Notes under the pieces: model-generated
What the model saw: the letters and a program-made list of their open reading frames with translations, nothing else
Told to the model about the DNA's origin: nothing
Database searches by the model: none
Position numbers and translations under genes: made by a program
DNA from: Alphaproteobacteria bacterium
GTDB taxonomy: Bacteria; Pseudomonadota; Alphaproteobacteria; JBFXJJ01
NCBI GenBank assembly: GCA_050175015.1
Contig: JBFXJJ010000008.1
Span: 12,415-76,414 of the forward strand
DNA length: 64,000 nucleotides
Reading direction: 5' to 3'
Shown: positions 16,589-63,224 of the stretch, piece by piece
How the letters are laid out: every line of letters starts with the position of its first letter
Position numbering within the stretch: the first letter of the stretch is position 1

Positions 16589-16594
16589 TGCAAG

Positions 16595-24881: not shown

Positions 24882-24909
24882 AATTAGATTGTAATATCAA
24901 TAAGTTAGA

Positions 24910-28465: not shown

Positions 28466-28480
28466 TATTTTGTAAACTCT

Positions 28481-28975: not shown

Positions 28976-29053
28976 GAAAAATGATTTAATTCTATTAATA
29001 ATAGTAATGGTTAAACGTCCTATTTTTTCCTCTTTATATTAGCGGGGGTGATT

Positions 29054-29190: not shown

Positions 29191-29194
29191 AGGT

Positions 29195-29494: not shown

Positions 29495-29564
29495 TTTGAT
29501 AAACCCTTAAAAATAAAACCTTATTAGTTATATATAATACAGATAACATATAAAGTCAAGATTT

Positions 29565-34646: not shown

Positions 34647-34685
34647 TTTTACACACTTTTGGCATTTTTTTGATTGGTGATGAAG

Positions 34686-36422: not shown

Positions 36423-36655
36423 TTGCTTATTATTCCTTGTTTTTCTTCAATAACGCCAATCGAAAAAAGAAAAACTATAGTTAAAATCAAATTGTCGAAA
36501 CTATGCTTGGCGAAGTAGTTTCCGCTTTTAAAATCAAATTGATATTTTTTCCATAAATCGTCAATGGTTTTAGGTGTTTTGAGCTCTTCAATGAGATAAC
36601 TACCTAAACCGAGTAGGGACTGTGAAAAATTCAAATGTTTTTTTGGTATAAGCAT
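36413..36655 (-). CDS. Small hypothetical protein (LmuC-like middle gene?)
   Basis: 80-aa ORF overlapping the ATPase start by 10 nt and abutting the upstream gene. Confidence 0.3.
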   Translation of the reverse strand: MLIPKKHLNFSQSLLGLGSYLIEELKTPKTIDDLWKKYQFDFKSGNYFAKHSFDNLILTIVFLFSIGVIEEKQGIISKCV

Positions 36656-36657
36656 AA

Positions 36658-37593: not shown

Positions 37594-37602
37594 TATTCCT
37601 TA

Positions 37603-43207: not shown

Positions 43208-43288
43208 TTTTCTGTCCTCCTAGATTTATAATGGCATAGATTGGCAAAGATTGTCAATATTATGAGGTTTAAAGTTAAAATATTTTTC

Positions 43289-43327
43289 ACATACCCATAC
43301 CGAAGCCGTAGCTTTTGGATTTTATTA
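43289..43327 (-). pseudogene. Remnant of a relaxase gene 3' end
   Basis: TCACATACCCATACCGAAGCC(G/A)TAGCTTTTGGATTTT is shared with 46507-46545, where it encodes the C-terminus ...KSYGFGMGM* of the MobA relaxase. Confidence 0.4.
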
Positions 43328-46465: not shown

Positions 46466-46506
46466 GAAAATTCAAGGATTTTTCAATTATTTTTTTTGTA
46501 ATTTAT

Positions 46507-48036: not shown

Positions 48037-48353
48037 AGCTCCTCAATCTTAGCCTTTAAAATTGCTCGTAAATCTGCAATAGCGTTAATATGTTTGTTTA
48101 ACTCTTCAGGATAAAAATTTTCATCAAGAGCAAGTTTAAACAGATTACCCAGCCTTGCTAAATCAGCATTGATTTTTAATAAATCAGATATAGCTTGTTG
48201 CTTGCCAATGTTAGGCAAGGGAATATTTAAAACCGCAAATCTTAAAAGCTCTGATTGTGATAAATTATAAGTTTTAGCTAACTCAACCAGTTTATCTTTT
48301 TCTTGCCTATTAAGATAAACAAGGCTTGCTATGTTTCTTTTATCTGGTTTCAT
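48033..48353 (-). CDS. MobC-family mobilisation accessory protein
   Basis: 106 aa. Overlaps the relaxase start. ...LNRQEKDKLVELAKTYNLSQSELLRFAV... and a C-terminal coiled segment typical of MobC. Confidence 0.6.
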   Translation of the reverse strand: MKPDKRNIASLVYLNRQEKDKLVELAKTYNLSQSELLRFAVLNIPLPNIGKQQAISDLLKINADLARLGNLFKLALDENFYPEELNKHINAIADLRAILKAKIEEL

Positions 48354-48355: not shown

Positions 48356-48673
48356 CTAAAGCTCTTCATCAGGAATTTTTCTCTTTGGATCAAAATGAAA
48401 CTTTTTAATCTCGTGAGGATTATCAGAGCTTAATCTTTTTTCTTCTGCTTCTTTGCGGGCTAAAAGCCTTAAATCTTCAGGGTGCATAAAATCTTTTAGA
48501 TTGATGTGCTTTTTGATAAATCGATAAAAAGATGCTTTAGAGCAGGTTATTTCTCTTTTTTCCTTTAGCTCGTTATAAATGCTATGCCTTGTATAGCCTT
48601 GTTTAAGCAAAAGCCTGATTTTGGCAGTTTTTGCGATTAGTTCATATCTAACTTGGGCGTAATATTTAGTCAT
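48356..48673 (-). CDS. Small hypothetical DNA-binding protein (HTH-like)
   Basis: 105-aa ORF directly downstream of the iteron cluster. CSKASFYRFIKKH resembles a recognition helix. Confidence 0.3.
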   Translation of the reverse strand: MTKYYAQVRYELIAKTAKIRLLLKQGYTRHSIYNELKEKREITCSKASFYRFIKKHINLKDFMHPEDLRLLARKEAEEKRLSSDNPHEIKKFHFDPKRKIPDEEL

Positions 48674-50624
48674 TTTGGTTTCCTCCTAAATCTTGATGGT
48701 TAAAATTGCTACCCTCTACATATCTACAACTGTTGTTTTCCAATTGTTTGCTAAGATAAATTTTATTATCTGGTAGAGGGTTTGTAGAGGGTTGGTTATG
48801 ATTAAAGTTGTTGTTTTCTCTATGTTGTAGAGGGGTAGAGGGTTTAATCAGGTATCTGGAGAACGCATCTTTAAAATGCTCCTTGTGGTAACATTTTAAA
48901 TTTTTATCATTCATTCTTTTTTGATGAGACTTAATGCCAAAATCTTTTAAGATTGCGGATAATTGAAGCGGGGTTATCGGTTGATTAAATCGCCATTCAT
49001 TCCAAGGGCTTTCATCAATATCGGCAAGTTTTAAGCATAGCTCTTGAGAAGAAATAAAGCTTAATGGGTATTCTTTAAAAATATCTCTTATGTCGTTTAA
49101 CAAAAGGGTTTTAATCGAGCTGTCATCATCAGCATAACCAATACTATCTGTGGTGTTCATCGCTATATTGGCAAGTTCTAGCCAATCCCTCCCTGCAAGT
49201 TCAGCAATCGCTAAAAGAGGTCGCCAATTATCGGCGGTTCTATCATTTATCTGATTAGAGATTGTCGGGTCTGCTTCCTGAAGCTTTAAAAAGTTATCAT
49301 CTGCAAAACGACTGCATTTTTGTTTTATAATGTTAAACAAAGAGCTTTTATCGCCTCTTAAGCGTTCAACAGTTTCTCCAGCAAATTTTCTTCGCATCGT
49401 GATAATAATGCTTCTATCAGCTATGGTATCAGCGAGCTTGCCAATTCCTGCAATTGCACAAGGGCAGAAACAAGAAAAGATTCTAACGCTATAACCTTTG
49501 TGGGCTTCAACATTGCGGATTACTCCGCCGCCTTTAATATGCCCTTCGTTAATAATGCCTCTAAGTTCCTCTTTTTCTTTTAAAAAAGCATCGGCTTCAT
49601 CAATAAGTAAGGTTGGGGCATAAGCCTCAATGGTTCTAAACATTGCCGAAGCTGTAAGACTTGATACTCTTAAAGATTTACAACAAAGAAAATCCAAAAG
49701 CATAAGTAGGGTTGTTTTGCCGCATCTTTTTTCAGGGGAATGAATAAGAAGTCTTGGCGAATGCTCAAAAGCTTCAAAAGAGTAGGTGAACAAAACCCAT
49801 AGAGCTAAAGTGGTTTCGGCATTTTCTGGCAAAACAAGATATTTTTTAAAGATGTCTCGAAGTTCATTTAAAACCTCAGCCCCATTAACGGGTTTTGAAT
49901 ATGGAGCTGGTCTTGGCAAACTAAGCTCTCTTCCTGCTAGAGCTTTGGTTTCTGTATTTTTTGTTTCTAAAAGAGTTCTTAAAAAACTAATGGTTTTATT
50001 GTTGGGGATTTCATCAGCTAAATCCCAGCCTTCAGGAAAATAATCAGGAATTTTAACAATCGCTACTTCATTCTGTTTTTTTAAGATTTTAAAAAGTTTA
50101 AGCATAGCTTGTTTGCCAGCTTCATCATTGTCAGCCCAAAGTTTAATTTTACGGTTTTGTAAAATACTCCAATTAGCTTTTGAGATAGCATTAGCACCGC
50201 CAGCCCAAGTTAAAACAACATAATCAGGAAAAAGAAGCCTTGCACTATCAACAGTTTTTTCTCCTTCAACAATTAAGATGTTATCTTTTGGTCTTGCTTC
50301 CAAAAGTTCTTCGCCATAAAGAGGTCTTGGTTCAGAAAAGCCCTTCATGTGCCAAGCTGTTTTGCCATTTTCTAGTTTGCAATAAATAAAAGGTCTAAAT
50401 GTCTTTTGTTTAGTGCCATTAACTTTTTCATATCTGGCAATATAACCGACAAGCTTATTTTTAGCGTTTTTATAAGCATAAACATTTGTTGGCTCATTCC
50501 ATTCCGCAATTTTAAAAGAAGGCTTTGGAGCATCACTAGGAACAGGAATAATCGATATTACTTCTGGCTCTTTTGTTAAGATGTTTGTTTTAGAAACATC
50601 TATTGGCTTAAAAAAATTAGTCAT
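48666..50624 (-). CDS. Primase/replication protein (Toprim domain plus C-terminal P-loop NTPase, P4 alpha / D5-like)
   Basis: 652 aa. Toprim acidic motifs LIVEGEKTVDSA...LWADNDEAGKQA. Walker A SPEKRCGKTTL and Walker B LLIDEAD. The low-complexity C-terminal tail overlaps the iterons. Confidence 0.7.
   Translation of the reverse strand: MTNFFKPIDVSKTNILTKEPEVISIIPVPSDAPKPSFKIAEWNEPTNVYAYKNAKNKLVGYIARYEKVNGTKQKTFRPFIYCKLENGKTAWHMKGFSEPRPLYGEELLEARPKDNILIVEGEKTVDSARLLFPDYVVLTWAGGANAISKANWSILQNRKIKLWADNDEAGKQAMLKLFKILKKQNEVAIVKIPDYFPEGWDLADEIPNNKTISFLRTLLETKNTETKALAGRELSLPRPAPYSKPVNGAEVLNELRDIFKKYLVLPENAETTLALWVLFTYSFEAFEHSPRLLIHSPEKRCGKTTLLMLLDFLCCKSLRVSSLTASAMFRTIEAYAPTLLIDEADAFLKEKEELRGIINEGHIKGGGVIRNVEAHKGYSVRIFSCFCPCAIAGIGKLADTIADRSIIITMRRKFAGETVERLRGDKSSLFNIIKQKCSRFADDNFLKLQEADPTISNQINDRTADNWRPLLAIAELAGRDWLELANIAMNTTDSIGYADDDSSIKTLLLNDIRDIFKEYPLSFISSQELCLKLADIDESPWNEWRFNQPITPLQLSAILKDFGIKSHQKRMNDKNLKCYHKEHFKDAFSRYLIKPSTPLQHRENNNFNHNQPSTNPLPDNKIYLSKQLENNSCRYVEGSNFNHQDLGGNQND
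48711..48845. repeat. Iteron cluster (CCCTCTAC / GTAGAGGG), copy 2, adjacent to the primase gene; candidate replication origin
   Basis: CCCTCTACATATCTACAA, then GTAGAGGG at 48773, 48784, 48825 and 48834. Same architecture as 29054-29190. Confidence 0.55.
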
Positions 50625-50941
50625 AGTTCTACCCCCAGCATTTGTGCGAGGTTGTGTAAGGCTTCAAGCTGGGTTGAGTTGGTTAAATAAGCAGCTAGTG
50701 AAACAACATCGCTTCCCTTATCGCCAGTGGCAAAGTCTGCCCATTTACCAGTTTGTATATTTACTTTAAAAGAGCCCTTGCTCTTATCGCTTCTGGTAGG
50801 GTTAAGTGCGATCCACTCGCAACCTTGCTTAACGCCACCAGGTAGCCATCTAGCTAAAATTGTAGGTAAAACCGATAAAGCAACATTATTAACCTTTGCA
50901 AAATCCGCTTTACCCAAGTTGGATAAGTAAATTTTACTCAT
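50621..50941 (-). CDS. Hypothetical small protein associated with the primase (possible N-terminal primase module)
   Basis: 106 aa. Stop overlaps the primase start (ATGA). Confidence 0.35.
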   Translation of the reverse strand: MSKIYLSNLGKADFAKVNNVALSVLPTILARWLPGGVKQGCEWIALNPTRSDKSKGSFKVNIQTGKWADFATGDKGSDVVSLAAYLTNSTQLEALHNLAQMLGVEL

Positions 50942-51176
50942 AGGTTTTGCTGGTTTCTATGTCAGAAGTGGTGTTTTCTTCAAGATAAGCTTTTAATCCG
51001 CTTAAAGGATAACGGACTGCATTGCCAATTTTAACGATTTTAAGCTTTACTCTTTTGGTGCAAGCCCAAACTGAAAGACTGCCCTCTGAAACGTTCAGAT
51101 ACTCTGCGGCTTCTTTTCTGGTTAATAAAGGGTCGTCATTTTTATAAGTGGTTTTAGTCTGTTTATTAGCGTTCAT
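50934..51176 (-). CDS. AlpA-family transcriptional regulator / excisionase-like protein
   Basis: 80 aa. LTRKEAAEYLNVSEGSLSVWACTKRV HTH of the phage AlpA / Xis-like family. Confidence 0.65.
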   Translation of the reverse strand: MNANKQTKTTYKNDDPLLTRKEAAEYLNVSEGSLSVWACTKRVKLKIVKIGNAVRYPLSGLKAYLEENTTSDIETSKTYE

Positions 51177-51326: not shown

Positions 51327-52520
51327 TTACACTAACCCCTGTTTTATCCAATTTTTAAGAGTTCTGGTTTCAATAAGTTCTGTGCCTTCAGGAAAGTTAC
51401 CTTTTTTGTGCTCGCTAGATATAGAATCTAAAACCTGCCTGATGTTGTTGGCATTGTTTTTTTCTTCAATTGTTTTCCAGCCCTTTTCTCTGTAAATTTC
51501 TTTAATTCTTCGTTTGATTGCTCCATATTTTTTTTCATTTTTTGAGTCAGCCGCTTTTTGTTTTATAGGGTCTTTTTCTGGTTTTTGAATTTCTTGGTTT
51601 ATTATTGTCTGTTCGTCAAGATTTATAGTTGTCTGCTCTTCTTGTTTTATAAGATTATTAACCACCACAACAACAGAAGTGTCATTGCTTTCTTTTTGTT
51701 GTTCTTTATATACTGCTAATTGTCCTTTAGGAATTGCGTTTTTTAAGCTTTCTATATCAATCAAAACCTTATAAGCCTTTTGGTATGGGTATATAAAAAC
51801 TATAAATGAAAAAATAAAAAGCATTAAAATAGCAAAAATCATTAAAGAGCTGGCATCAGGCAGAAAGCGAACTGATAATATAACCGCTGTTGCAAAAAGA
51901 GCTAAAAATAAAAATCTTTTTATGTAGTGTAAAAGCTCTATTATGTATTGCAATATTCCTGTTGTTTTAAACACTAGATTTCTTGTAATAAATAAATTTT
52001 CTTCCCAATCTATATAAGTGCAGGTATTACCATTTAAGATATTTCTTTTGTGTTTAGGTAATTTTTGCTGTTTTTCTCTTCTTTTAAAAAAGCTGTCGTT
52101 ACTTTCAATTTTATCAATACCATCTTTTTGATAGTATTTTTTATAATTAAAAGGTTTTGAAAGCTGAAAAAGGTTGCCAGTAAACTGCTCCCATATAAAG
52201 CTTCTGGTGTTATATCTTTGTGCTTCAAAGGACATGTTGCCGTGCAAAAGGTTGTTTTTTAAAATTTCTTTTCCGCAAGTTATTTCTTCTGGAGTAAATT
52301 CGCTATAATCAGGTTCTTTATACTCATTAAATGATATTTTAGTTTGCTTTTCGTTAAATTCAATTGGCTCTTCTGCCGTAACTGCCCATTTTAAAGCTTC
52401 AATTAAATCAGTATATTTTGCTGTATCCATTTTATTAGCCTTATTTATTTTCCAGTTGTTCAATAATATTAACCGCATCATCAATCGATTTTCTGATAGT
52501 ATCTTGTTGAAGTCTAGCAT
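51327..52520 (-). CDS. Hypothetical membrane protein
   Basis: 397 aa with two predicted TM helices (FLFLALFATAVILSV..., LMIFAILMLFIFSFIVFIY). Confidence 0.3.
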   Translation of the reverse strand: MLDFNKILSENRLMMRLILLNNWKINKANKMDTAKYTDLIEALKWAVTAEEPIEFNEKQTKISFNEYKEPDYSEFTPEEITCGKEILKNNLLHGNMSFEAQRYNTRSFIWEQFTGNLFQLSKPFNYKKYYQKDGIDKIESNDSFFKRREKQQKLPKHKRNILNGNTCTYIDWEENLFITRNLVFKTTGILQYIIELLHYIKRFLFLALFATAVILSVRFLPDASSLMIFAILMLFIFSFIVFIYPYQKAYKVLIDIESLKNAIPKGQLAVYKEQQKESNDTSVVVVVNNLIKQEEQTTINLDEQTIINQEIQKPEKDPIKQKAADSKNEKKYGAIKRRIKEIYREKGWKTIEEKNNANNIRQVLDSISSEHKKGNFPEGTELIETRTLKNWIKQGLV

Positions 52521-53745
52521 AAACTTGGGTTGCTTGTTGCGACTTATGCCCTAAGGTTTTGCCGATAATTTCTAGGCTAACGCCGTTCATTGCTTGATAG
52601 CTTCCAAAGGTTCTTCTTATGTCGTGAAGTCTAACGTCCATTAAACCTTGCGGAAGAGCAATCTTTCTTTTTTTTGCTTCTCTTTTAACCGCATTAAAAA
52701 TTCTTAAAACCGTGCAGGCATAGTTATCTTGGCTTTTTACTTCGGTTTCAACGTCATCAACTAATTGAGCTAAATTTGGGTCTTGTTTCCAAATAGCTAT
52801 CGTTGCTCTTTTTCTAACTCTTTCCCAAGCCTTTCTTGGATCTTTATAGTAGTCATCAGCTTCATCATTGGCAAATACCCATTCAGAATTAGAGCTAATT
52901 TTGCGTTTTTTTAAAATATCAATAGCTTTTCTGGTTAAGGGTAGGGTGAGCGGGTCTCCGTTCTTGGTTTCTGGAATACGCCATTCTTCACGTTCCCAAT
53001 GGATTTCTTCCCATTTCATAGTTAGAACGTTAGTTTTTCTTGCTCCTGTTAAAAGCGACATAAAAATATAATCTTTAGCGGTTTCGTTTTCTTCTTCTTT
53101 TAGGGCATCAAGCAAAAAGGGCATTTCTTGATGTTCAATAAACCTATCCCTTGATTTTTCTTTAAACTTTTTAATTCCATTTGAAGGGTTTTTGCCGTCC
53201 CAACCCCATTCAATAGCCTTGTTAAAAATAGCTCTTATTCGCTCTAAAATGCGGTTTGCCTGATAAAGCCCGTTTTCGTCTTTAATTTTGTTATGAAGTT
53301 GTTGGATTTCATATTGTGAGATAGTCGAGATTTTGCGATTTAACCAATGAGATAAAAACTTATTAACTTCTCTTTCGTCATATTGCCAAGAGCGTTTATG
53401 TGGTTTGCTATATCGTTCCATATAATCTTTAAAAAGGTCTTTGAAGGTAGCTTCTTTTTGCATTTTGTGTTTATGCTCAAGAGGGTGAGTGCCTTCTGAT
53501 ATTTTAGCTTTAGCAATGGTTGCTTTTTTTCTAGCATTTTCAACCGTCATATCAGGAAAACTGCCAAGAATAACTCTTTCATCTTTGCCATCAATTCTTT
53601 TGCGAACAAAAAAAGATATAACCCCAGTAGAGGTTATATAAAGCTGTAAGCCTTTTTCTTTGGTGTCTTTATAAACCTCAGTTCCTTTTGATGGGGCTTT
53701 TAAACTTTGGATTGATGCTTTGGTAAAATTAAAAACTTTAGTCAT
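52441..53745 (-). CDS. int: P4-type tyrosine integrase
   Basis: 434 aa. N-terminal arm-binding (DUF4102-like) TKASIQSLKAPSKGTEVYKDTKEKGLQLYI. Catalytic R (LLTGARKTN), HDIRRTFGS and Y (VYARL). Confidence 0.85.
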   Translation of the reverse strand: MTKVFNFTKASIQSLKAPSKGTEVYKDTKEKGLQLYITSTGVISFFVRKRIDGKDERVILGSFPDMTVENARKKATIAKAKISEGTHPLEHKHKMQKEATFKDLFKDYMERYSKPHKRSWQYDEREVNKFLSHWLNRKISTISQYEIQQLHNKIKDENGLYQANRILERIRAIFNKAIEWGWDGKNPSNGIKKFKEKSRDRFIEHQEMPFLLDALKEEENETAKDYIFMSLLTGARKTNVLTMKWEEIHWEREEWRIPETKNGDPLTLPLTRKAIDILKKRKISSNSEWVFANDEADDYYKDPRKAWERVRKRATIAIWKQDPNLAQLVDDVETEVKSQDNYACTVLRIFNAVKREAKKRKIALPQGLMDVRLHDIRRTFGSYQAMNGVSLEIIGKTLGHKSQQATQVYARLQQDTIRKSIDDAVNIIEQLENK

Positions 53746-53946: not shown

Positions 53947-53995
53947 TTTGCCTCATAACCTGAAGGTCGCATGGTTCAAATCCTGCCCCTGCAAC
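53947..53995 (+). repeat. Imperfect tRNA-Met 3'-half fragment; right att of the inner element
   Basis: CTCATAACCTGAAGGTCGCATGGTTCAAATCCTGCCCCTGCAACC. Compare with 24836-24881. Confidence 0.55.
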
Positions 53996-54139
53996 CTAAG
54001 AAGCCCGCAGTCTCAACATCTTACGGGCTTATTTATCTGAAAATTATGTGTAAAAAAATACCAAAACTATGCTAGCGTAGTATGTAAAAGCAAGTTTTAT
54101 CAACTTTGGAAAGTTTCAATCAATGATATTAAGACAAAA

Positions 54140-54973
54140 CTATTGATTTAAATTAGAGATGTTAGATACTAAATTATAAATAAACCAACCATCTCCTGTA
54201 ATAAATGTCTGAGGTTTAGCACTCACGCCATCTTTATGAACACCTAAGCCGTCAGAATAAGGTATAAAAGAAACTATTTTATTGAAATTAATTCTAAAGT
54301 TTTTTCTAGAACCTCCAAAATAAAGATTTTTATTTGTAATAGCTAATATCCCTGTATCGGCATATAAAGATTGCTCCGTTTGGATTCTTTCTCCTTTAAA
54401 GGCTCCTGTTCTATAATAAACACCTTTTGCAATGCGAATACTAAAACCACTGGAGCATCCGACATAATGTGTTTTTGTTTTTTGTTCGATATAATCAACA
54501 TTTTGAAATATCCATATCAAGCTTTCGTTTTTTTGAAAATTAAAAGGTAAATTTCCTTCTATGGTTATTTTGTTAGGGATTTCTCCATTTATGAGAGTTC
54601 TAATTACTGTTCCTTTAATTAGTTTTGTATAGTAACCGTTGTTGTTGACATCATATTGGGTTAAAGAAAATTTTTCTAAAATATCGCATAACAGGTTTTC
54701 TTCTTCTTCCGAAACCAGATCATCTTCAAAGGCAGTATCAATTGATTTTTCCCAACCAGTAGAGATAAAAAGTTTTTTATCAAAGTCTTTAATATAGCTA
54801 GAATCACATATTTCTTTAATATTATTAACCATATTGGTAATGTTTTTTGATATAAATGCGTTATGAATAATATCTATAACAGCATTTTTTCCTTCTAGAT
54901 ATTTTCTTTCACATTCTTTATGTTTTTTTCTAAGAAAACCAGCATCTTCTCCGCAATATTTACAAATGCCCAT
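54140..54973 (-). CDS. Hypothetical protein with N-terminal Cys-rich zinc-ribbon-like motif
   Basis: 277 aa. MGICKYCGEDAGFLRKKHKEC. Confidence 0.3.
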   Translation of the reverse strand: MGICKYCGEDAGFLRKKHKECERKYLEGKNAVIDIIHNAFISKNITNMVNNIKEICDSSYIKDFDKKLFISTGWEKSIDTAFEDDLVSEEEENLLCDILEKFSLTQYDVNNNGYYTKLIKGTVIRTLINGEIPNKITIEGNLPFNFQKNESLIWIFQNVDYIEQKTKTHYVGCSSGFSIRIAKGVYYRTGAFKGERIQTEQSLYADTGILAITNKNLYFGGSRKNFRINFNKIVSFIPYSDGLGVHKDGVSAKPQTFITGDGWFIYNLVSNISNLNQ

Positions 54974-55018
54974 AATGTCTCCATTATTTTATGATGTATC
55001 ACAAAAATTATATTGAGA

Positions 55019-55201
55019 TTATTTGTTTTTTTGATTTATTTCTTTTTCTAACTCTTCAAATTCTTCAGGGTCGGCATAGGCAATCTTGCCGTCTCGCCAG
55101 ACAACAAGTTTTGTGCCAGTTTGTTTGGCAATTTTGATAGCCTCTAAACCGCCAGCTTTTATACCTTCAAGAATTTTATCAGTATTAATTACATCTAACA
55201 T
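55019..55201 (-). CDS. Small hypothetical protein (possible partner of the zeta-like kinase)
   Basis: 60-aa ORF, 3 nt downstream of the P-loop gene. Confidence 0.3.
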   Translation of the reverse strand: MLDVINTDKILEGIKAGGLEAIKIAKQTGTKLVVWRDGKIAYADPEEFEELEKEINQKNK

Positions 55202-55204
55202 AGT

Positions 55205-55792
55205 TTAAATCTCGCTTTCTTTAAGGATATTATCCCATATTTCTTTATTATAAACAATAATTTCGTTCTTTTCCTTCTTTGCTATCAGCTTGCCAGAATG
55301 AGGATCAACATTGTTATAAATTAAAGCCTTATCGGCAATAGGCAGATAATGATTGATAAGGTTTACAAAGCCTCTTTTATATCTGCGGATAATATCTTGT
55401 TTAGGTATATCGTGTCCGCCTTGTGAGACTCTTATTTTTACTCGTTCAATTGCCATATCAGAGGAAGGCAACCATAAAAAGATAAGTCCTATGGTATAAC
55501 CACCTTCTTTAGCTTTTTTTAACTTGTCAAAAAAGGTTAGGCTTGAGCAGGTAGTTTCAAAAGCAAAGCTCTTTTTTGAAGCCATAAGACTGTCTATGCG
55601 GTTTAACATAAGTTTGCCTGCGGTTATGGCTTGCCCTTTGGGGTTAAGGGGATTTAAACCTCTTGCTATTTCATCGGCGTTTATAAATTCATACATCGAT
55701 AAAAACTTGGGAAGAAGAGTCATTGCGGTTGTGGTTTTGCCCGAACCGTTTGCCCCTGAAATCATGTAAATTGTTGGATTTTCATCTTTCAT
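55205..55792 (-). CDS. P-loop kinase of the zeta-toxin / AAA_33 family
   Basis: 195 aa. Walker A ISGANGSGKTTTA. Size and topology resemble zeta/PezT-like UNAG kinases. Confidence 0.5.
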   Translation of the reverse strand: MKDENPTIYMISGANGSGKTTTAMTLLPKFLSMYEFINADEIARGLNPLNPKGQAITAGKLMLNRIDSLMASKKSFAFETTCSSLTFFDKLKKAKEGGYTIGLIFLWLPSSDMAIERVKIRVSQGGHDIPKQDIIRRYKRGFVNLINHYLPIADKALIYNNVDPHSGKLIAKKEKNEIIVYNKEIWDNILKESEI

Positions 55793-55795
55793 AAA

Positions 55796-58700
55796 TTAAA
55801 CCTCACTCTCTTTATCTTTTTCAGTATCTGCTTCAATCACAGCTTTTATGTCTGCAATATGTTTTTTGGTAAAATATATTTTCATATCTTTATCAGCTAA
55901 AACTACTTCAAGTTCATTTCCTTCAATTTCTTTAAACATTTCCAATATCAAATCATCAGAATCGTTTGCATGACAGAACATGGCTGAGTGATTAGGACAA
56001 AGAGCTAAATAATTTTGATAATGTCTTTTTTCTAAATCACTTCTTAAAAATTCGGTGGTCTCAAAATAGTAATTCCCATCTTTTAATTTAAAAGGCAATT
56101 CCTTTTGGCATATTTGACATATCATTTTGCCGTCTGGGTTTGTGTATTGACTGATTAAATAATTTTTTGCTTCTTTTTTTACATCTTCACGGTTTGTTGA
56201 TACTGAGCGAGTTCTTTTTTCGAATGTCCTTTCTGGGGCACTAGAGGCTTGTGCTCTAACTCTTTCTCTTCTTCTTTCTGGGTTTAATGGCTCATCTTCT
56301 GGTAATTCAAAATTATCATCTTCTTCTTTTTCGGCTAAAATTCTTTCTTGTTCTTCTTCAGGTAATTCTGCAAAACGTCTCGCTCTTTCGGCTGAAGCAA
56401 TATCTTTAAAACCTAGTTTTTTGGCGGCTTCTTCTTTCTCCTTTTTTTGTTCTAGTAATTTTAGTTTTTCTTCTATTTGTTTTTTTGATTTTTCTTCTTC
56501 TTCTAATTCTTCTTTTGTCGGCTCTCTTTTTGCGTTAAAGCCAAAATTTATAGCAAGCAAAAAGTTGTCGCCTTTATCATAAGAAAAGCCCTTTGGCAGC
56601 AAATCGCTAAAAGCCTTGTTTGGGGTTACAAAACTTATTTCTTTTGTTTCATTTTCTTGAGGTATCCATTCATTATTTTTAAGCACTTTGATTAGGGTTG
56701 ATTCTGCCATTCTTGGATCTACTGAACCATTGGGCTTATAAGATGCTTCAACTATATTTTGATACCACCAGTAATCTTTAGAAAATGACGAGTCATTATT
56801 TTTAAGCGTATTCCATATTAGTTTAGAAACATTAATCTCTTTTTCTCCTAATACCTTTTCAAGATTGGGAATATGCCAGTCTTGAAAAGATTCATAATCT
56901 GTTACTCGTCCAGAACAAGACCAAACCAAGTTCCGTTGAAGACTTTTATCTTCTTGTTTTTCTATTGCTAGTTCAGTTTTAACACCCACATTTTTAAAAA
57001 AATCAACAAGTTTTTCTTTTTCAATTTTAAGCTTTAAATATTTATTGGATATTTTATGCAAATTATGACCTTCAAATGCAGAATAAAAAGCACTTAAGTT
57101 TGTTTCTTCATACGGGCTATCAATATATAATTGCTCAATTTTTCTCCACTTACCATTTTCACAAAGAATAATATAAGACTCTTCAAATAAATCGGTTTCA
57201 TCAGGATTTTTTTCTAAAAAATCAATAAAAATTTTAATGTCTTCAATTTTGGAAAATCTATTGCCAATCCAATACCGTTCTTTTAAAAAACACTCTATAT
57301 ATTCTTTCTCTCCAAACTCTCTAACGCCCATTTTTTCTAAAAATAATTTGGCATTTTTTTGCTCTGCTTGGTTTTTTCCTAAAGAATATGTTTTAGGTTC
57401 AACTGTTGGGTAAGTATTTTGTTTTCTTTCTTCATTATAAAAAAAGCATTCATTTTCCGAGTTAAAATTACCATCAGTTAATTTTATAATTTTGCATTTT
57501 TTAAGTTGCCATAAACTTGAATAGTCTTTTTCTACTATTTCATATAAAAAAGCATAAAAGTTTTGAAGCCATTCGTTAGTTTTTTTGCTTAGCCATTCTT
57601 TTGAAGTTTCTTCAATTTCATTTTTTGTATACTTTGCAGTCAAAGTTTTTATTAAATCTTCTTTATCCCATTTCTTTATTTGTAAGCTATTAAGAAACTT
57701 ATCAGCATTATCACTTCTCTGCCGTGATGACATAACCCATAAAGGAGGCTGTTCATCATAATCAAAAAGAAATTCCATATCCTCATTGGATAGCAAATCC
57801 TTTAATTTTCGATCTCCTTGCAATAAATATTTAGCAGGATAATGTGTTCGACAAAATGTGGGAGTTAATGCTTCATTGTTCATTTTATCAATTATTTTTT
57901 CTCTGATTACTTCGTATTTATCAGAAATGTCGTCATCTCCATTAGGTAAAACATTTAAGAAATCGGTGTTCAAAAGATTTAAATCTTTGATTCTATGTAA
58001 TGATTGAGCGGTTAAATCAGCTAATTGTTCATATAAGGAATCGTTTGCAGGGGTGTTTTTAATACTTGCTCTGCTTAATTCGGGAACAAATGGTGCGTGG
58101 AGATGGAATCTTAATCCAGATATTTCTTTTTTAGCAGGGAAGAAAACGGAAACATTGGCAGGCTCGGCAACAACAATTTTCACTTGATTTGATAAATCGT
58201 TATTAGCGTTAAATTCTTTTACCCCAGCTAAAAAATCAAGCGGAAAAGCAATGGCAACTTTTTGTTTTTCTAAACCTTTGACTGGAGCATCAAACTTTAG
58301 AAAATGTGAGCTTTCAGTGGTTTTACCATTTATTTGTTTTAGAATTTCAATATGGTTTGGAGAGTGTTTTGTTCTTAAAACTTCACCAGATGTTTCTGAT
58401 AAAATTTTCCAGCTAATTGTTTCAATGTTATTTAAGAATAGCAAAGTTGTTTCTTCAAGCTCGTTTAGCCCATCCTTGATTTCTTCAAAAGCATCTTCTT
58501 GGCTTTTTTTGTGATTATTAAATGGAAATTCAAATTTGGTTTTTTTTGAATTAATAGGACTTAATTCAAAAGGTAAAACCAAATCTGTTATTTTAAAGGA
58601 AAATGTAGGAGACCATATATGAGGTGTTTCAGAGTATGCAAAAACAGCTTTAAATCCTATTCCAAATCTTCCTATTTTGTCGTTGTCATCTGCCTTTGTT

Positions 58701-58993
58701 CCTTCGCCAATATCTGTAATTGCAAGAATATCTTTCTCATCAAAAGGTCTGCCGTTGTGTTCGAATATCAGTTTGTTATTATGTAATGTAAAAGTTACGT
58801 CTTTAGCTTCGGCATCTTCTGCATTTTGCAATAGTTCGTATATAAAATGAGCACTATCTGGGTATAAGTCTTCAACGATTTTTCTTATACCAGTGTGTTT
58901 TTTCAAAACCCGAGCTAATTCGTCTCGTTCCTCAACTCTTATTTTTTCTATGATATTCATTTTACATTTTTCCCGAAACTTCAATAACTCCAA
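55796..58993 (-). CDS. GHKL-superfamily ATPase (HATPase_c, MORC/Hsp90-like) with C-terminal DUF3883-like domain
   Basis: 1065 aa. Bergerat-fold N-box IYELLQNAEDA, G1/G2 boxes DIGEGT...GRFGIGFKAVF. The C-terminal region ...CQICQKELPF...YLALCPNHSAMF is DUF3883-like. Confidence 0.65.
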   Translation of the reverse strand: MELLKFREKCKMNIIEKIRVEERDELARVLKKHTGIRKIVEDLYPDSAHFIYELLQNAEDAEAKDVTFTLHNNKLIFEHNGRPFDEKDILAITDIGEGTKADDNDKIGRFGIGFKAVFAYSETPHIWSPTFSFKITDLVLPFELSPINSKKTKFEFPFNNHKKSQEDAFEEIKDGLNELEETTLLFLNNIETISWKILSETSGEVLRTKHSPNHIEILKQINGKTTESSHFLKFDAPVKGLEKQKVAIAFPLDFLAGVKEFNANNDLSNQVKIVVAEPANVSVFFPAKKEISGLRFHLHAPFVPELSRASIKNTPANDSLYEQLADLTAQSLHRIKDLNLLNTDFLNVLPNGDDDISDKYEVIREKIIDKMNNEALTPTFCRTHYPAKYLLQGDRKLKDLLSNEDMEFLFDYDEQPPLWVMSSRQRSDNADKFLNSLQIKKWDKEDLIKTLTAKYTKNEIEETSKEWLSKKTNEWLQNFYAFLYEIVEKDYSSLWQLKKCKIIKLTDGNFNSENECFFYNEERKQNTYPTVEPKTYSLGKNQAEQKNAKLFLEKMGVREFGEKEYIECFLKERYWIGNRFSKIEDIKIFIDFLEKNPDETDLFEESYIILCENGKWRKIEQLYIDSPYEETNLSAFYSAFEGHNLHKISNKYLKLKIEKEKLVDFFKNVGVKTELAIEKQEDKSLQRNLVWSCSGRVTDYESFQDWHIPNLEKVLGEKEINVSKLIWNTLKNNDSSFSKDYWWYQNIVEASYKPNGSVDPRMAESTLIKVLKNNEWIPQENETKEISFVTPNKAFSDLLPKGFSYDKGDNFLLAINFGFNAKREPTKEELEEEEKSKKQIEEKLKLLEQKKEKEEAAKKLGFKDIASAERARRFAELPEEEQERILAEKEEDDNFELPEDEPLNPERRRERVRAQASSAPERTFEKRTRSVSTNREDVKKEAKNYLISQYTNPDGKMICQICQKELPFKLKDGNYYFETTEFLRSDLEKRHYQNYLALCPNHSAMFCHANDSDDLILEMFKEIEGNELEVVLADKDMKIYFTKKHIADIKAVIEADTEKDKESEV

Positions 58994-61900
58994 AAATTAT
59001 AGGAGTTGCTCTTATGTCCCCGCTATTTGAAGTCTGCTCAAGCTCTTTCATTCTTCTATCAAAATCTGCATTTGCTCGTGCTAACTCTGCTTCTTTCATA
59101 ATCTTAATTTTATCGTTATTTGCCTTTTCTAGCTGGGCTTCTATCGTTTTACATCTTGCCCTGTGGCTAATGGTTAGGCTTTGCATTTTATGTTCAACCA
59201 GCTCTTTGTTTAAAGAAAAATGTTCGTTTTTCTTTTCTAACCATTTTTGATAATGTAGGTCTTCAAGTTTGTTTAAAATGCTCTCGTTCAATTCCAACTT
59301 AATATCAGCATTTCTTGCTTGAGAAATTATGTTTAATAGTCTTTGTTCTAGAGCAATGTCATCGGTAATAGAAACTAGCATTTCTTCGTTTTTAATGCCT
59401 GATTTTAACCATTTGTATATGGCAAAATAGTATGTTCCTGATTTTAAGTCGGCATCTTCTAAAGCTAATTTAGTTTTTTTGATTTCTTTGATTTCAAAGA
59501 ATTTTGCTGATTGTTTTATTAATGGGTGAAAAACTGATAAATAAACAATGTCTGGGTTGTCTTTGGCTATTTCTTGTTCAAATGTTATAGAAAGACTAGG
59601 CTTGTTTCCCTTAAGCCATTTTTCCCATTCTCTATGCTGTGGATCGTTAGAGTTATATATGGCTTTTAAATCACTTAACAATAAATCTCTGGCTTCTTGG
59701 CTTAATTTAAGATTTTTAATATCTTTTTCTCCAGAAATATGATTGTCTTCGTTTTTTAATTTATTGCATAAATAGCTATTCAAACAGTTTTGTAAATAAT
59801 TGGGAGATAAGAAAGAATTTTCAGCATCATCTAAGTCGTTTTGCCAAGAACTTTTAGGGATATTTAAGCCAAAAAACTCTGATTGTTTTTCTTCCAAATT
59901 TTGCTCTTCTTGGATAAGTCTGATCTTATTATCTGCTAGCTGTTGTAACCTGTTTTTTCTTTCCTCATCACTTAAATTAAAGTTTTCTGCAATTTCCTTA
60001 ATTTCTTGGTTTATTTCGCCAAGAATTTCTTCATTACCGCCGACTGTAGATTGAAAAACGCCTATACGCCATAAGCATCTTTCATATATATCACCATCTA
60101 CGGTATTGGGAGTTACTAAATTAATGATGGCAACGGTTTCACTTTTCTGCCCATATCTATCAATACGACCTATTCTTTGTTCTATACGCATAGGATTCCA
60201 AGGCAAGTCATAGTTAATTAGTAAATCACAAAATTGGAAATCTAAACCCTCACAGCCAACCTCAGATGATAACAAAACATCTATGGCATTTTCATTTTCT
60301 TTAGGCATAGAAAACCGTTTTCTTAAGTCTGCTCGGTCTTCGTCTTTTATATCTCCATGAATTAAAGCAACCCTGATATTGGCTTTTTTTGTTTTTTCAT
60401 AAAGATAATTTAATGTGTGCCTGAATGTGCTGAAAACCATAGCCTTGTTGTTTTCAAGGTTGTGTTTATCTAATAGGACTTTTATAAAAGCCTCAGCTTT
60501 TGGATCATAAGGGTCTAATGTTTTGGCATCTTCTATTATTTTTGAAATATCGGTTTTTATCTCATCTATAAAGTCGTTGTTATATAAAAAATCCTCATAT
60601 TCATCGTTGGCATAGTTATCACCGTCTAACAAGCTAAGTCTTTTGTTTAAAATATCCGATAGCGTAGGGACAAGAGCGTAAATACAACTTGAGGCTTGTC
60701 TTCGTATTGTTGTCATTAAAAACTTAACGAAACGTTCTCCGTGATAATAAGCTAAAATCTTTCCAACAATTTCAAGCAATTTATCGTGAAGATATTTTTG
60801 GTCTTTTGTAAACTCAACTATAATAGTTTCAGGTTTTCTTGTGGTGAAATTTCCAATATCCCTTCTTCTTGTTCTGTTTATGATGGAACTGAAAGTGTAA
60901 ATTTCTTCAAGATTCTTAATGGTTTTTATTCGTTCGTTATCAAGTATCTTATGTTCTTTCAAGCCATCATATGTTTTTTGAAACAAAGGGTTCTCTCTTA
61001 TAAACATTCTGCCCCATTCAGTATTAGCAACACTTTCAAGTGCAACAATAGCTTCTTTGTTCCAATCTTTGTTAGCTGTTCTGCAACAGCTTATAGCTTT
61101 GTTAATGAAAATATTGGGGGCTGCCATTTGAGAAAAGCTGTTTTTATCTATAACTAGGTCTGGTCTTAAGACGTTTAGCAAAGTAAAGAGGTCTTCACTG
61201 CCGAGTTGAACAGGGGTTGCAGTTAAAAGTAAAACAGCTTGAGCGTTATCACATAAAAAACGAACGCCATTATGTAGCAAAGTGTTCTGGTTTCTAATAT
61301 GATGAGCTTCATCAACAATTACTAAATCAAATTTAGGTGGAGGATCAAGTTCTAACAAACCATAATCTTTGCTTTTGCCTCGGCCTTGTTTGCCAAACAG
61401 GTTGTCTGAATCAAAAAGAGAGAAAGGCATAATTGCTTTAGAATATTTATGAGGCCATTCGCCTTCTAAATAAGTTTCTTGAATACAGCTTCTTAACAAA
61501 GAACCATCTATAGAAGAAAAATCTTCATTAAAACGCTTCATTTCTATTTGCCACTTTTTCTCTGCCACAAGGGCTTTTGGACACATAACTAAAATAGAAG
61601 ATATATCCATTCTTGCTTGTAATTCTTTGATAATTAAACCAGCCTCAATTGTTTTACCAACACCCACCTCATCAGCAATTAATATGCGAGGTCTATCACT
61701 GCGAATCAACTTCATAACAGGTCTATATTGGTATGGAACAAAATTTACTCTGCCCATTCTAAGAGAAAATAGCTCTTTAAAAGATGGGGATAATATTTGA
61801 GAGCTTGTGAGATATGCCTCTAATTCTTTTTTGTTGATAATTTCAGATTTAATTTCTGGTAAGTTTTTAGATTGAAGTTGGCTTTCATAATATGTTGCTA

Positions 61901-62522
61901 TGGTATTGTTTTGAAAAACCTTATATCGTTTTTCTACGCCATCTATTATTTCTATAATTGGAAAAACTGAATTTTCATCTGAACGCAAACAAACAACATC
62001 ACCCACTCTAAATAAAGAAACTTGTTTTTTTTCAAGATTATTGTTTGTCGGACTATCTTCGGCAGAAACTGAATTTTTCAATTCTTTTTGTTGCATTTCT
62101 GCAAGAGATTTTTGCTTGGTATCATTTATTATTTTTATGGTTTCATTTTTAGAGCCTAACGTTTTTAATAGTCTTTCAAGCGTGTCTGCATCTCTATAAA
62201 GTTCATTGGCAGGAACATCTTCAGATGATAAATGAGCCCACTTGTTTCTGACATTTTGCAACTCTTTTAGCCAATTTCTAGCCTCTCTTGGTAAATTGAT
62301 GATAGATGTAATCTCATACCAGTTTTGATCTAAAATTCTTAACAATGCAGCAAAGTCTAGCTGTTCAAGACTTTTTACATTTTTTTCCCTTATTATTCGT
62401 TGTTGCTGAAAACTAAGTCTTTCGATAACGCTTTTTTCCCACCAGTTAGAATCTGTTTTGGGTAGAATGTCATTTAAAAAAACGGTTAGGTCTTTAGTTG
62501 CTAAAGAAATTAAATCAATCAA
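58962..62522 (-). CDS. SNF2-family helicase with N-terminal Swt1-like HEPN domain
   Basis: 1186 aa. HEPN Rx4H motif LQNVRNKWAHLS (coded about 62237-62254). Helicase motifs ADEVGVGKT (I), VIVDEAHHIRN (II), LLTATP (III), IEQRIGRIDRYGQ (VI). Confidence 0.75.
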   Translation of the reverse strand: MIDLISLATKDLTVFLNDILPKTDSNWWEKSVIERLSFQQQRIIREKNVKSLEQLDFAALLRILDQNWYEITSIINLPREARNWLKELQNVRNKWAHLSSEDVPANELYRDADTLERLLKTLGSKNETIKIINDTKQKSLAEMQQKELKNSVSAEDSPTNNNLEKKQVSLFRVGDVVCLRSDENSVFPIIEIIDGVEKRYKVFQNNTIATYYESQLQSKNLPEIKSEIINKKELEAYLTSSQILSPSFKELFSLRMGRVNFVPYQYRPVMKLIRSDRPRILIADEVGVGKTIEAGLIIKELQARMDISSILVMCPKALVAEKKWQIEMKRFNEDFSSIDGSLLRSCIQETYLEGEWPHKYSKAIMPFSLFDSDNLFGKQGRGKSKDYGLLELDPPPKFDLVIVDEAHHIRNQNTLLHNGVRFLCDNAQAVLLLTATPVQLGSEDLFTLLNVLRPDLVIDKNSFSQMAAPNIFINKAISCCRTANKDWNKEAIVALESVANTEWGRMFIRENPLFQKTYDGLKEHKILDNERIKTIKNLEEIYTFSSIINRTRRRDIGNFTTRKPETIIVEFTKDQKYLHDKLLEIVGKILAYYHGERFVKFLMTTIRRQASSCIYALVPTLSDILNKRLSLLDGDNYANDEYEDFLYNNDFIDEIKTDISKIIEDAKTLDPYDPKAEAFIKVLLDKHNLENNKAMVFSTFRHTLNYLYEKTKKANIRVALIHGDIKDEDRADLRKRFSMPKENENAIDVLLSSEVGCEGLDFQFCDLLINYDLPWNPMRIEQRIGRIDRYGQKSETVAIINLVTPNTVDGDIYERCLWRIGVFQSTVGGNEEILGEINQEIKEIAENFNLSDEERKNRLQQLADNKIRLIQEEQNLEEKQSEFFGLNIPKSSWQNDLDDAENSFLSPNYLQNCLNSYLCNKLKNEDNHISGEKDIKNLKLSQEARDLLLSDLKAIYNSNDPQHREWEKWLKGNKPSLSITFEQEIAKDNPDIVYLSVFHPLIKQSAKFFEIKEIKKTKLALEDADLKSGTYYFAIYKWLKSGIKNEEMLVSITDDIALEQRLLNIISQARNADIKLELNESILNKLEDLHYQKWLEKKNEHFSLNKELVEHKMQSLTISHRARCKTIEAQLEKANNDKIKIMKEAELARANADFDRRMKELEQTSNSGDIRATPIIFGVIEVSGKM

Positions 62523-62616
62523 AAGATTCTCCTTAACTCAACATAAATTTAAAATATCGAACCAAAATTATAATAGTTATATTAAGTTTTAAAGTCGATA
62601 TTTTTACTAAAATAAA

Positions 62617-62760
62617 TCGTTGAGCAATAAAGTTGCGAATAATGATTTTCCCATTAGGGCAGGATTAAAGTAGTATTACTTTTACTATCCTGCCTTCTAA
62701 AAGTGTGAGAAATTTTGAGACATTATAAAAATTGATAAATTTTAAAAAAGCCTTTGTTTT
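62617..62760. repeat. Conserved leader element copy B with hairpin (62658-62694), upstream of the HEPN-SNF2 operon
   Basis: Homologous to 42283-42455 (see that entry). Confidence 0.55.
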
Positions 62761-62810
62761 CTAGGTATTTAAAGCGTTAAATATTCAAAACTGATTAATA
62801 AGGGCATCAA

Positions 62811-62950
62811 AATGTCTCAAGAGTCTTGAAAAGTCTTAATAATTCTTAATTTTTCTTAAAAAATCTTAAAATTTCTTAAAGTGTTTCAAAAAGTCCTAAA
62901 AATTCTTAAAAAATCTCAATTTGTTTCAAATGTCTTAAAGTTTTTGAATT
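62811..62950. repeat. About 14 degenerate tandem repeats of roughly 10 bp (TCTTAAAA / TCTCAA / TTCAAA), phased A/T tracts
   Basis: Read directly: ...GTCTCAAGAGTCTTGAAAAGTCTTAATAATTCTTAATTTTTCTTAAAAAATCTTAAAATTTCTTAAAGTG.... Confidence 0.6.
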
Positions 62951-63177
62951 TTCTCATCAATTTGGAGGGCAGGATAGTATCAGCAATATTGCTGATAAAT
63001 TTTGAGGGCTTATTCGCCTTCAGCTCAACGATAAAAACCTACGGGACACTGTAGGGACACTTTTTTATAAAAACGGGTAAAAATGGGCAAAAAATGACAA
63101 TCTCTCTTTTTTCACAAGAGCTTGGTTTTCTTATTGTTTTTGATTGTAAGCGGTTGATATTATTGTCTTTTTGAGAA

Positions 63178-63224
63178 CTCCGAAGCCGAAGGTCGCAGGT
63201 TCGAATCCTGTCGAGTGCGCCACT
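63178..63224 (+). repeat. attR: 47-bp direct repeat of the tRNA-Arg 3' half
   Basis: Identical to 23225-23271. Confidence 0.85.

Follow-up and report, generated by a model that had tools for sequence, protein, structure and literature searches.

Tiamat is an Hsp90-like defence system encoded by a single gene. Its protein, TmtA, has a length of 1429-1590 amino acids (aa), is annotated with Hsp90, DUF3684 and DUF3883 domains, and has been verified for Bacillus cereus FORC_005 (Millman et al. 2022, bioRxiv 10.1101/2022.05.11.491447, Table S2). Operons associating a GHKL ATPase with a superfamily 2 (SF2) or SNF2 helicase have been predicted to be restriction-modification (R-M)-like systems, with roles in DNA looping and translocation (Iyer, Abhiman & Aravind 2008, PMC2292703). 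Hma is a candidate helicase-methylase-ATPase system (PMC8565338). Swt1-like HEPN domains were already noted in 2013 in bacterial R-M-like operons with SNF2 helicases (Anantharaman et al. 2013, PMC3710099). The present analysis concerns a locus in which a HEPN domain, an SNF2 helicase and a sacsin-type GHKL ATPase are encoded by two adjacent genes, A and B. The locus is found in a 64,000-nucleotide (nt) stretch of DNA, called here the window (assembly GCA_050175015.1 of an Alphaproteobacteria bacterium, contig JBFXJJ010000008.1, positions 12,415 to 76,414 of the forward strand), the numbering of which is used throughout. From the sequence comparisons described below, it is reasonably probable that genes A and B form a two-gene, methylase-less module directed against phages or other mobile genetic elements, where the SNF2 and GHKL proteins would be DNA sensors and motors, and the HEPN domain an RNase effector.

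The conservation of the pair was studied in a collection of one genome per species (185,579 species genomes), where 532 genomes carry both signature motifs and from which 80 loci were fetched. The GHKL protein encoded by gene B has 3356 relatives at E<1e-10. The distribution of the pair is patchy (~0.3% of species). An orthologous SNF2 gene adjoins the GHKL gene in 64 of the 80 loci, with a core identity of 53-68%. In 63 of them, the SNF2 gene is directly upstream on the same strand and usually overlaps the start of the GHKL gene by 4 bp (ATGA); L006 differs in having it on the opposite strand, beside a second GHKL gene. The other 16 loci comprise three that are cut at the 5′ end of the GHKL gene, one without an SNF2 gene within 10 kb, and 12 variant operons considered below. 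The same pair is carried by independent contigs of Brucella anthropi, Sulfuricaulis limicola and a metagenome-assembled genome with two GHKL paralogues. It occurs in Proteobacteria, Planctomycetes, Acidobacteria and other phyla, and the SNF2 and GHKL genes are also neighbours on an archaeal plasmid. The genes bordering the pair in the 80 loci are highly variable, including those downstream of the GHKL gene. The conserved unit, and probably the functional one, is a two-gene operon, HEPN-SNF2 plus GHKL, the genes of which are strictly linked and probably coupled in translation. With one partial relative in phage genomes and eight in IMG/VR, this module is not typically viral. In some loci (L005/L006, L095), two sacsin-type GHKL paralogues accompany a single HEPN-SNF2 gene; the first paralogue of L095 has 1252 aa and a different C-terminal third, and is followed by an Hma-like C5-methylase and SNF2 pair.

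Gene A (58962-62522, minus strand) starts with a TTG codon preceded by an AGGAG ribosome-binding site and encodes 1186 aa. Four regions can be distinguished in the protein: a HEPN domain of the Swt1/Abi2 clade (residues 1-125), a small β-barrel of the SH3/Tudor/KOW type (residues ~176-218), an SNF2 ATPase resembling DrmD and RapA (residues ~250-850), and a helical C-terminal region extending to residue 1186. The HEPN domain (62148-62522, minus strand) is matched by Pfam HEPN_Swt1 at residues 9-122 (E 1.2e-16), and the helicase part by SNF2-rel_dom, Helicase_C and ResIII. The Rx4H motif reads R92-N-K-W-A-H97, within VRNKWAH. A model of the N-terminus, built with homologues from a search of representative sequences, has an all-α HEPN fold similar to those of Swt1 and AbiF. 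Fold, Rx4-6H motif and family profile together place the domain in the HEPN superfamily, Swt1/Abi2 clade. The initial annotation of this DNA, made from the letters alone, had recognised a Swt1-type HEPN domain on an SNF2 helicase and had named structural similarity as the check to be made; the Pfam match, the RNKWAH motif and the recovery of the Swt1 and AbiF folds all bear it out. The barrel (residues 176-218) resembles HspQ, R67 DHFR, and Tudor, chromo and KOW domains, and its matches include the Tudor domain of the SNF2 protein ERCC6L2. The HEPN-barrel N-terminus is present in 913 representative clusters.

Gene A was aligned with 60 orthologues from related loci. The Walker A motif GVGKT (K290), the DEAH motif (D404/E405) and the sequence QRIGRIDRYGQ are invariant. 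RN[KR]WAH is retained in 53 of the 54 orthologues that possess the HEPN domain, whereas in about six of the 60 this domain is replaced by another N-terminal domain, such as DUF2283. Together with the gene B residues described below, these alignments indicate that the three enzymatic centres, that is the HEPN RNxWAH motif, the SNF2 Walker A/B and arginine motifs, and the GHKL N-box and G-boxes, are under purifying selection. Swt1-type HEPN domains up to 51% identical to that of gene A are found at the N-terminus of Avs-like STAND proteins of ~1320 aa with a NACHT/AAA_16-WD40 organization, and the domain also occurs fused to an FGE-sulfatase domain (P0415, P0478, P0399). The N-terminus of STAND proteins is the customary position of the effector. 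Because the same domain occupies this position in NACHT-WD40 proteins, the HEPN domain of gene A may be considered as an effector.

The similarity of gene A to RapA raises the question of a role outside immunity, such as RapA-like recycling of transcription complexes, DNA repair or compaction of the island chromatin. The NCBIfam RapA model indeed matches gene A (E 4e-61), and several GHKL proteins, MutL, Hsp90 and MORC among them, act outside immunity. However, the RapA score of 207 bits is far below the cut-off of 576. Moreover, the patchy distribution of the pair, its variable flanks, its location in islands and its defence-gene neighbours do not favour a housekeeping role, nor does the fusion to a toxin-type HEPN domain common to STAND NTPases. 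We therefore regard such a role as very improbable.

Gene B (55796-58960, minus strand) encodes 1054 aa when read from the ATG codon at 58960, which is the start used in the database copy of the protein (P0001). The 1065-aa version of the initial annotation corresponds to an upstream TTG codon at 58993, 33 nt before this ATG and inside gene A. The protein consists of a sacsin-type GHKL ATPase, a segment FHLHAPFVPELSRASIK, a long helical middle region and a C-terminal zinc module. The N-terminal domain is matched by Pfam SACS (E 5e-22) and HATPase_c_3, as well as by the NCBIfam "sacsin N-terminal ATP-binding-like" domain. Foldseek aligns it with the N-terminal domains of MutL and Hsp90, with the SR1 repeat of sacsin and with topoisomerase II ATPase domains (E 5e-5 to 1e-3), the best values, ~5e-5, being those for sacsin SR1 and MutL. 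These sources agree on a GHKL/Bergerat ATPase, as predicted initially. GHKL motifs I to III (ExxxN, DxGxG, GxxGxG) are present with the fold, as E42/N46, DIGEGTK and GRFGIGFKA. In an alignment of 20 full-length homologues (~50% identity), the Bergerat-fold residues E42, N46, G85, G87, G97, G100 and G102 are invariant, and so is the FHLHAPFVPELSRASIK segment.

The Cys/His-rich C-terminal part of gene B had been thought to resemble DUF3883. This assignment had to be abandoned: neither DUF3883 (NOV_C, PF13020, of restriction-endonuclease-like fold) nor DUF3684 is found in the whole protein, nor in its C-terminal 234 aa at E<=1, nor in any of the 20 family members at E<=0.1. When the last 150 residues are made into a profile and compared with PDB sequences, the match is instead to McrA of E. 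coli, in its HNH domain (6ghc, E 7.5e-6). Foldseek recovers the same structure (E 7e-3), and the PADLOC model mREase_IV matches residues 941-1021 (E 1.3e-5). In this module (55961-56143, minus strand; residues ~940-1000), the zinc ligands C948, C951, C988 and H991, which correspond to the CxxC ... CxxC/H pairs of McrA-type HNH domains, are invariant in the family. However, the McrA sequence EVHHV is aligned to EKVEF or ETTEF, so that the position of the general-base His-His lacks histidine, and CPNCH is aligned to CPNH[A/S], so that the terminal metal-binding histidine is missing. A neighbouring histidine, in RHYQN, varies within the family. Since the catalytic histidines of McrA are not kept, we read it as a zinc module derived from HNH, probably binding DNA, and not as a canonical nuclease. 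The same degenerate module (38% identity) is found near the C-terminus of an 850-aa protein of the Proteus mirabilis plasmid pHFK418-NDM (L093, 3186-5738), which has no Pfam match and is otherwise unrelated to gene B. This protein belongs to a defence cluster of Proteus plasmids, and its neighbours on the conjugative NDM plasmid encode a restriction endonuclease, a GIY-YIG nuclease, a DEAD helicase and a methyltransferase.

The contexts of gene B relatives are informative as to what is constant in the module. In the 12 variant operons, a gene B-type GHKL protein (~45% identity, C-terminal module kept) is encoded by the fifth gene, after a helix-turn-helix-SNF2 protein (DrmD model, E 4.5e-190), an AbiJ-like protein with an Abi_C HEPN domain, a type III Mod and a type III Res. 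The separate AbiJ-type HEPN gene is present in 9-10 of these 12 operons. In three of them (L037, L043, L052), a superfamily 1 (SF1) helicase-nuclease follows the GHKL gene. Furthermore, two Sphingomonadaceae loci (L009, L011) have Mod and Res directly upstream of the HEPN-SNF2/GHKL pair. On Rhizobiaceae plasmids, the SNF2 protein starts at the barrel, without HEPN, and is followed by a 29%-identical GHKL protein and by a RecB-like nuclease-SF1 helicase. When a separate small HEPN protein was sought for such HEPN-less loci with the HEPN hidden Markov model (HMM), the only matches among all open reading frames (ORFs) of the fetched loci were the SNF2 fusions; a 184-aa upstream protein of an Ensifer plasmid has no Pfam match. 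The picture that emerges is that of a constant core, SNF2 plus sacsin-type GHKL, to which HEPN domains or other nucleases are attached as exchangeable effectors.

More generally, the neighbours of related pairs include type I and type III R-M genes, GmrSD, HipA, SLFN/AlbA_2, SIR2, AAA_13 and PDC-S68. Together with the domain content, these defence-island neighbourhoods give good support to the defence-type role that had been proposed initially. An SF1 helicase of 1250-1300 aa, the PADLOC candidate PDC-S68 (E 0), is found beside the pair in 10 of the 80 loci, on either side and in either orientation (L010, at 12754-16629; L012, L017, L022, L027, L032, L033, L051, L056 and L070). It may be a recurrent functional partner or merely a frequent co-resident of the same islands.

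These contexts bear on what we consider as the main rival explanation, a DNA-targeting machine accessory to R-M or resembling modification-dependent, type IV restriction. Here DNA would be cut by the McrA-like module or by some nuclease of gene B that escaped detection, the SNF2 and GHKL proteins would loop or translocate DNA as in the model of MORC R-M systems, and the HEPN domain would only bind or regulate. This kind of mechanism was proposed for MORC/paraMORC-helicase operons (PMC2292703). Homology of the gene B C-terminus to the McrA HNH domain, including the mREase_IV match, points in the same direction, as does the physical linkage of the GHKL gene to type III Mod/Res in 14 of the 80 loci (the 12 variants plus L009 and L011). 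Nevertheless, the absence of the McrA general-base pair and of the last metal-binding histidine, and the variability of the RHYQN histidine, are difficult to reconcile with cutting by this module. Moreover, the HEPN Rx4H motif is almost invariant, which argues for a catalytic rather than a regulatory HEPN domain. On balance, restriction of DNA by this machine is rather unlikely.

Coming back to the module with an RNase effector, the following mechanism may be envisaged. Protein B would bind DNA via its degenerate HNH zinc module, without cutting it, and would dimerise upon ATP binding, as MutL, MORC or Hsp90. Protein A would translocate on DNA thanks to its SNF2 motor. HEPN RNases, which are metal-independent endoRNases, build a composite Rx4H site by dimerisation. 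Since this site requires a dimer, a B dimer closed by ATP could, on foreign DNA, bring two A subunits together and in this way switch on the HEPN RNase. Once activated, the HEPN domain would cleave transcripts, tRNA or rRNA, leading to abortive infection or growth arrest. SNF2 and GHKL would then be the conserved sensor and motor, and the effector would be swappable. This GHKL clade is accompanied by three different HEPN families: Swt1-like on SNF2 at the present locus, AbiJ-type Abi_C in the operon linked to type III R-M, and HEPN-T in animal sacsin. It is tempting to imagine an ancient and recurrent partnership between sacsin-type GHKL ATPases and HEPN RNases, where SNF2-assisted, ATP-driven dimerisation of the GHKL protein would gate the HEPN dimer; this extension is attractive but doubtful.

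Several points weigh against this reading of the pair. The defence role is deduced from domain content and genomic neighbourhood, and the activation of the HEPN RNase would follow from analogy with other HEPN and GHKL proteins. The full-length model of gene B is of medium confidence (pLDDT 69.7). The presumed inactivity of the HNH-like module is drawn from the missing histidines alone, and invariant E and N residues, together with a distal histidine (H1034 in the 1054-aa numbering), could constitute an atypical active site. In view of the type III linkage described above, the module might normally work alongside an R-M system, none of which is adjacent at this locus. Finally, given the packing of five genes described below, a local functional link of the pair to the zeta-like kinase is conceivable.

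In the window, genes A and B are the first two of five co-directional ORFs of the minus strand, running from 62522 to 54140. They are followed by a zeta-toxin-like P-loop kinase (55205-55792, 195 aa), a 60-aa ORF (55019-55201) and a 277-aa ORF (54140-54973), all on this strand. The junctions are, in gene order, TAA-a-ATG, which places the ATG of gene B 1 nt past the gene A stop codon, then TAA-ttt-ATG, TAA-act-ATG, and a 45-nt gap containing GGAG, so that the successive gaps are of 1, 3, 3 and 45 nt. All five genes are probably co-transcribed here as one apparent transcription unit. When 53.9-63.3 kb was scanned for promoters and terminators, the number of sites did not exceed that of shuffled sequence, which makes the scan uninformative. 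The initial annotation had rightly insisted on the tight packing of co-directional genes. The genes exist as it described them, except that the 277-aa ORF, although within the interval it delimited, was left out of its account.

That annotation had gone further and united the products of genes A and B, the zeta-like kinase and the small ORF in one multi-component system. The packing and the probable co-transcription speak for this possibility. In contrast, tblastn searches of the 80 GHKL loci gave for the kinase a single weak match, ~8 kb from the pair, and none for the 60-aa and 277-aa ORFs, and the genes downstream of the GHKL gene vary from locus to locus. In addition, each of these genes has a life of its own. 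The kinase is recognised by Pfam Zeta_toxin (E 4.7e-11, 42.9 bits for a cut-off of 22.3), has the Walker A motif GANGSGKT and belongs to a family of 5996 relatives, with proteins of ~195 aa. Its relatives are encountered in non-defence contexts, beside TrkH, after SAICAR synthase, or next to housekeeping genes of a cyanobacterial chromosome. A small ORF homologous to the 60-aa ORF occurs immediately downstream of the kinase in L086, L087/L088 and L089 (81%, 21% and 40% identity, respectively), with D37, K39 and I40 invariant. The kinase and its small companion had been correctly identified. The 60-aa ORF matches no Pfam or NCBIfam family, and is a putative antitoxin or regulator. The two genes form a portable module of their own, plausibly toxin-antitoxin-like. 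Epsilon/zeta (PezAT) also relies on a Zeta_toxin domain with a P-loop, but is characterised by UNAG-kinase toxicity and by an epsilon antitoxin encoded upstream, whereas the short, 195-aa kinase studied here has a downstream 60-aa ORF that is unrelated to epsilon.

The 277-aa protein, with its N-terminal CxxC, has no Pfam match, and neither has any of its 466 relatives, whose contexts are varied and apart from SNF2/GHKL pairs. This well-conserved family consists of 276-aa proteins with N-terminal CxxC...C, at ~50% identity across phyla, and relatives are seen as cargo of mobile elements, as in Sedimenticola, where an ion-channel gene and a resolvase are neighbours. Because they are rare or absent in the 80 loci and have unrelated contexts of their own, the kinase, the 60-aa ORF and the 277-aa ORF were rejected as components of the system. 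A single system that includes the kinase and the small ORF along with the pair appears highly improbable. The initial interpretation thus erred in the limits of the system, although its general sense holds. Rather than one system, the cassette consists of three modules packed together, the kinase/60-aa pair and the 277-aa ORF being independent cargo in the transcription unit of the A-B operon.

The island carrying the cassette is linked to a tRNA, as had been proposed. An intact tRNA-Arg(CCG) gene (23192-23269) has its 3′ 45 bp (23225-23269, attL) repeated exactly at 63178-63222 on the plus strand (attR). Next to the tRNA, a gene of the plus strand (23633-24697) encodes the tyrosine integrase of this outer element (Pfam Phage_integrase, E 1.2e-35). 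The direct repeat of the tRNA 3′ end and the adjoining integrase identify a tRNA-integrated island. A mobilizable inner element of ~29 kb (24836-53997), bordered by repeats resembling a tRNA-Met 3′ half (24836-24882 and 53952-53997), has been inserted so that it separates the outer integrase from the cassette, which lies outside it. Without this insertion, the outer tRNA-Arg element would be ~10.7 kb long and consist of the integrase and the five cassette genes. Neither tRNA-Met-like copy is an intact tRNA; for this reason, the inner element seems to have entered a fragment of tRNA that belonged to the outer one. It encodes a P4-type integrase (52441-53745), an excisionase (50934-51176), a DUF3631/Toprim primase (48666-50624) and a MobA/NikA relaxase (46507-48353).

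On the right side, icd borders the island, its reading frame running off the edge of the window. It was considered as a truncated remnant of an integration site, an idea that was dismissed since the frame merely leaves the window. Between gene A and attR, at 62814-62943, that is 290-420 nt upstream of gene A, TTAAGAnnnn is repeated ~9-13 times with an exact 10-bp phase (9 matches versus 2.7 expected, a value reached in 0 of 100 shuffled sequences). This array possibly corresponds to curved DNA, to sites for a regulator or to recombination-arm sites. A second short 10-bp repeat (TAAAAACGGG, 2.6 copies) is located at 63068-63093. An Rfam search revealed nothing beyond the tRNA.

The inner element is itself dense in defence genes. 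Its region 25056-42172 holds Olokun OloB and OloA (E 7.5e-152 and 2.5e-64), HigBA, a PLD-SNF2 helicase, an ApeA-like protein, an ABC-3C/PDC-M68 pair, a type IIG restriction-methylase of 1194 aa and a PDC-S18/DUF5655 protein. Further cargo comprises ParE, another toxin-antitoxin pair and a chemoreceptor. Two direct copies of a 45-nt sequence (43283-43327 and 46503-46547, 93% identity), the right one of which overlaps the 3′ end of the relaxase gene, bracket a 3.2-kb segment that contains a toxin-antitoxin pair (HI1420 antidote and Gp49-like protein) and a Cache-domain chemoreceptor gene. This segment looks like the scar of a cargo insertion. The two sCache_3 domains of the methyl-accepting chemotaxis protein correspond to a tandem duplication of 300 nt in its gene (45366-45665 and 45699-45998, 86% identity).

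The A-B pair is compact, with two genes in ~6.7 kb, highly conserved, and represented by thousands of protein clusters in hundreds of species. With present annotation tools, one half of it would be labelled "Tiamat" and the other half an orphan DrmD. Defining the pair would correct this and lengthen the list of candidate defence systems by one that unites three activities, directed at ATP or RNA. Experiments would also gain a tractable entry to the GHKL ATPases of immunity, which include Tiamat, Hma, MORC-type R-M systems and GHKL-Shedu. A more general lesson is that close packing in an island does not make a system, since three independent modules here share one apparent operon.

How does the pair compare with systems already described? 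In a literature search for a named defence system made of HEPN-SNF2 and sacsin/GHKL proteins, only the 2008 and 2013 comparative-genomics papers were retrieved, and no model defining the pair as a system was found in PADLOC-DB v2. The theme of GHKL with SNF2 has been predicted already, and the particular pair of HEPN-SNF2 and sacsin-type GHKL is unnamed. The earlier statement that no named system matches has nevertheless to be nuanced, because PADLOC recognises TmtA in gene B and DrmD in gene A; what holds is that the features defining Tiamat and DISARM are lacking.

With regard to gene B, the TmtA model PDLC03972 matches residues 13-783 (E 2e-68) and eight further TmtA models match as well, so that PADLOC or DefenseFinder would probably label the protein as Tiamat. 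In both gene B and Tiamat, a GHKL ATPase of the Hsp90/sacsin type forms the N-terminus and precedes a large helical region, and both are found in defence islands. The locus could accordingly be seen as a plain Tiamat beside an orphan DrmD-like helicase, with nothing new. However, gene B is much shorter than TmtA, at 1054 aa, is devoid of both DUF3684 and DUF3883, and has at its C-terminus a degenerate HNH module of the McrA type. With the verified TmtA of B. cereus, it is 28% identical over only the 90 aa of the ATP-binding core. A single gene suffices for Tiamat, whereas genomic comparison couples gene B to an adjacent SNF2 partner, as seen in the 64 loci described above. For these reasons, namely the two missing domains and the partner gene, we consider gene B as part of the broad family that PADLOC models as TmtA, yet as a relative of Tiamat and not a member; the simpler explanation by Tiamat alone is unlikely.

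With regard to gene A, the top PADLOC model is DrmD PDLC02623 (E 7e-111, residues 251-1066), and weaker matches are obtained with BrxHI/BrxHII, DrmA, HmaA and DpdE. The DrmD alignment spans the SNF2 core and the C-terminal region; the helicases to be compared are those of DISARM (DrmD), BREX (BrxHII) and Dpd (DpdE). In contrast with DrmD, gene A has an additional N-terminal HEPN domain and barrel, and its score with the NCBIfam DrmD equivalog NF038317 is 318 bits, below the cut-off of 610. DrmA, DrmB (DUF1998), DrmC (PLD), DrmMI/MII, and BREX or Dpd partners were all sought among the five cassette genes and none was found. The HmaA model also matches gene A (E 3e-44), but Hma is a three-gene operon with an m5C (5-methylcytosine) methyltransferase, and no methyltransferase was found in the cassette.

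MORC/paraMORC operons and Hma have in common with the A-B pair a GHKL+S5-type ATPase accompanied by an SNF2 helicase, often with HNH modules and R-M genes; the variant of the A-B family within type III R-M operons adds to this likeness. Gene B differs in belonging to the sacsin clade and not to MORC or paraMORC1-5 as described, and the descriptions of these systems do not comprise a HEPN RNase fused to the helicase. As for the HEPN domain, gene A shares family, Rx4H motif and fold with the RNases of the Abi2/Swt1 clade (AbiF/AbiD, Swt1). In the architecture noted in 2013, HEPN is joined to an AAA+ ATPase (DUF499) and accompanied by a separate SNF2-DUF3883 protein, whereas here HEPN is carried by SNF2 itself and the partner is a GHKL protein.

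The last comparison is with animal sacsin. There, a sacsin-type GHKL domain and a HEPN domain are parts of one polypeptide, while at the present locus they are encoded by one operon (PMC3710099). The HEPN domain of sacsin is of the HEPN-T family and that of gene A is Swt1-like, sacsin is a chaperone with DnaJ and ubiquitin-like (UBL) domains, and homology is shown for the GHKL domain only. If the partnership between GHKL and HEPN imagined above proved true, the two bacterial genes would constitute an abortive-infection system that stands alone and is independent of methylation, the Tiamat family would gain a mechanism, and the locus would provide a prokaryotic model for the GHKL-HEPN combination of the human ataxia protein sacsin.

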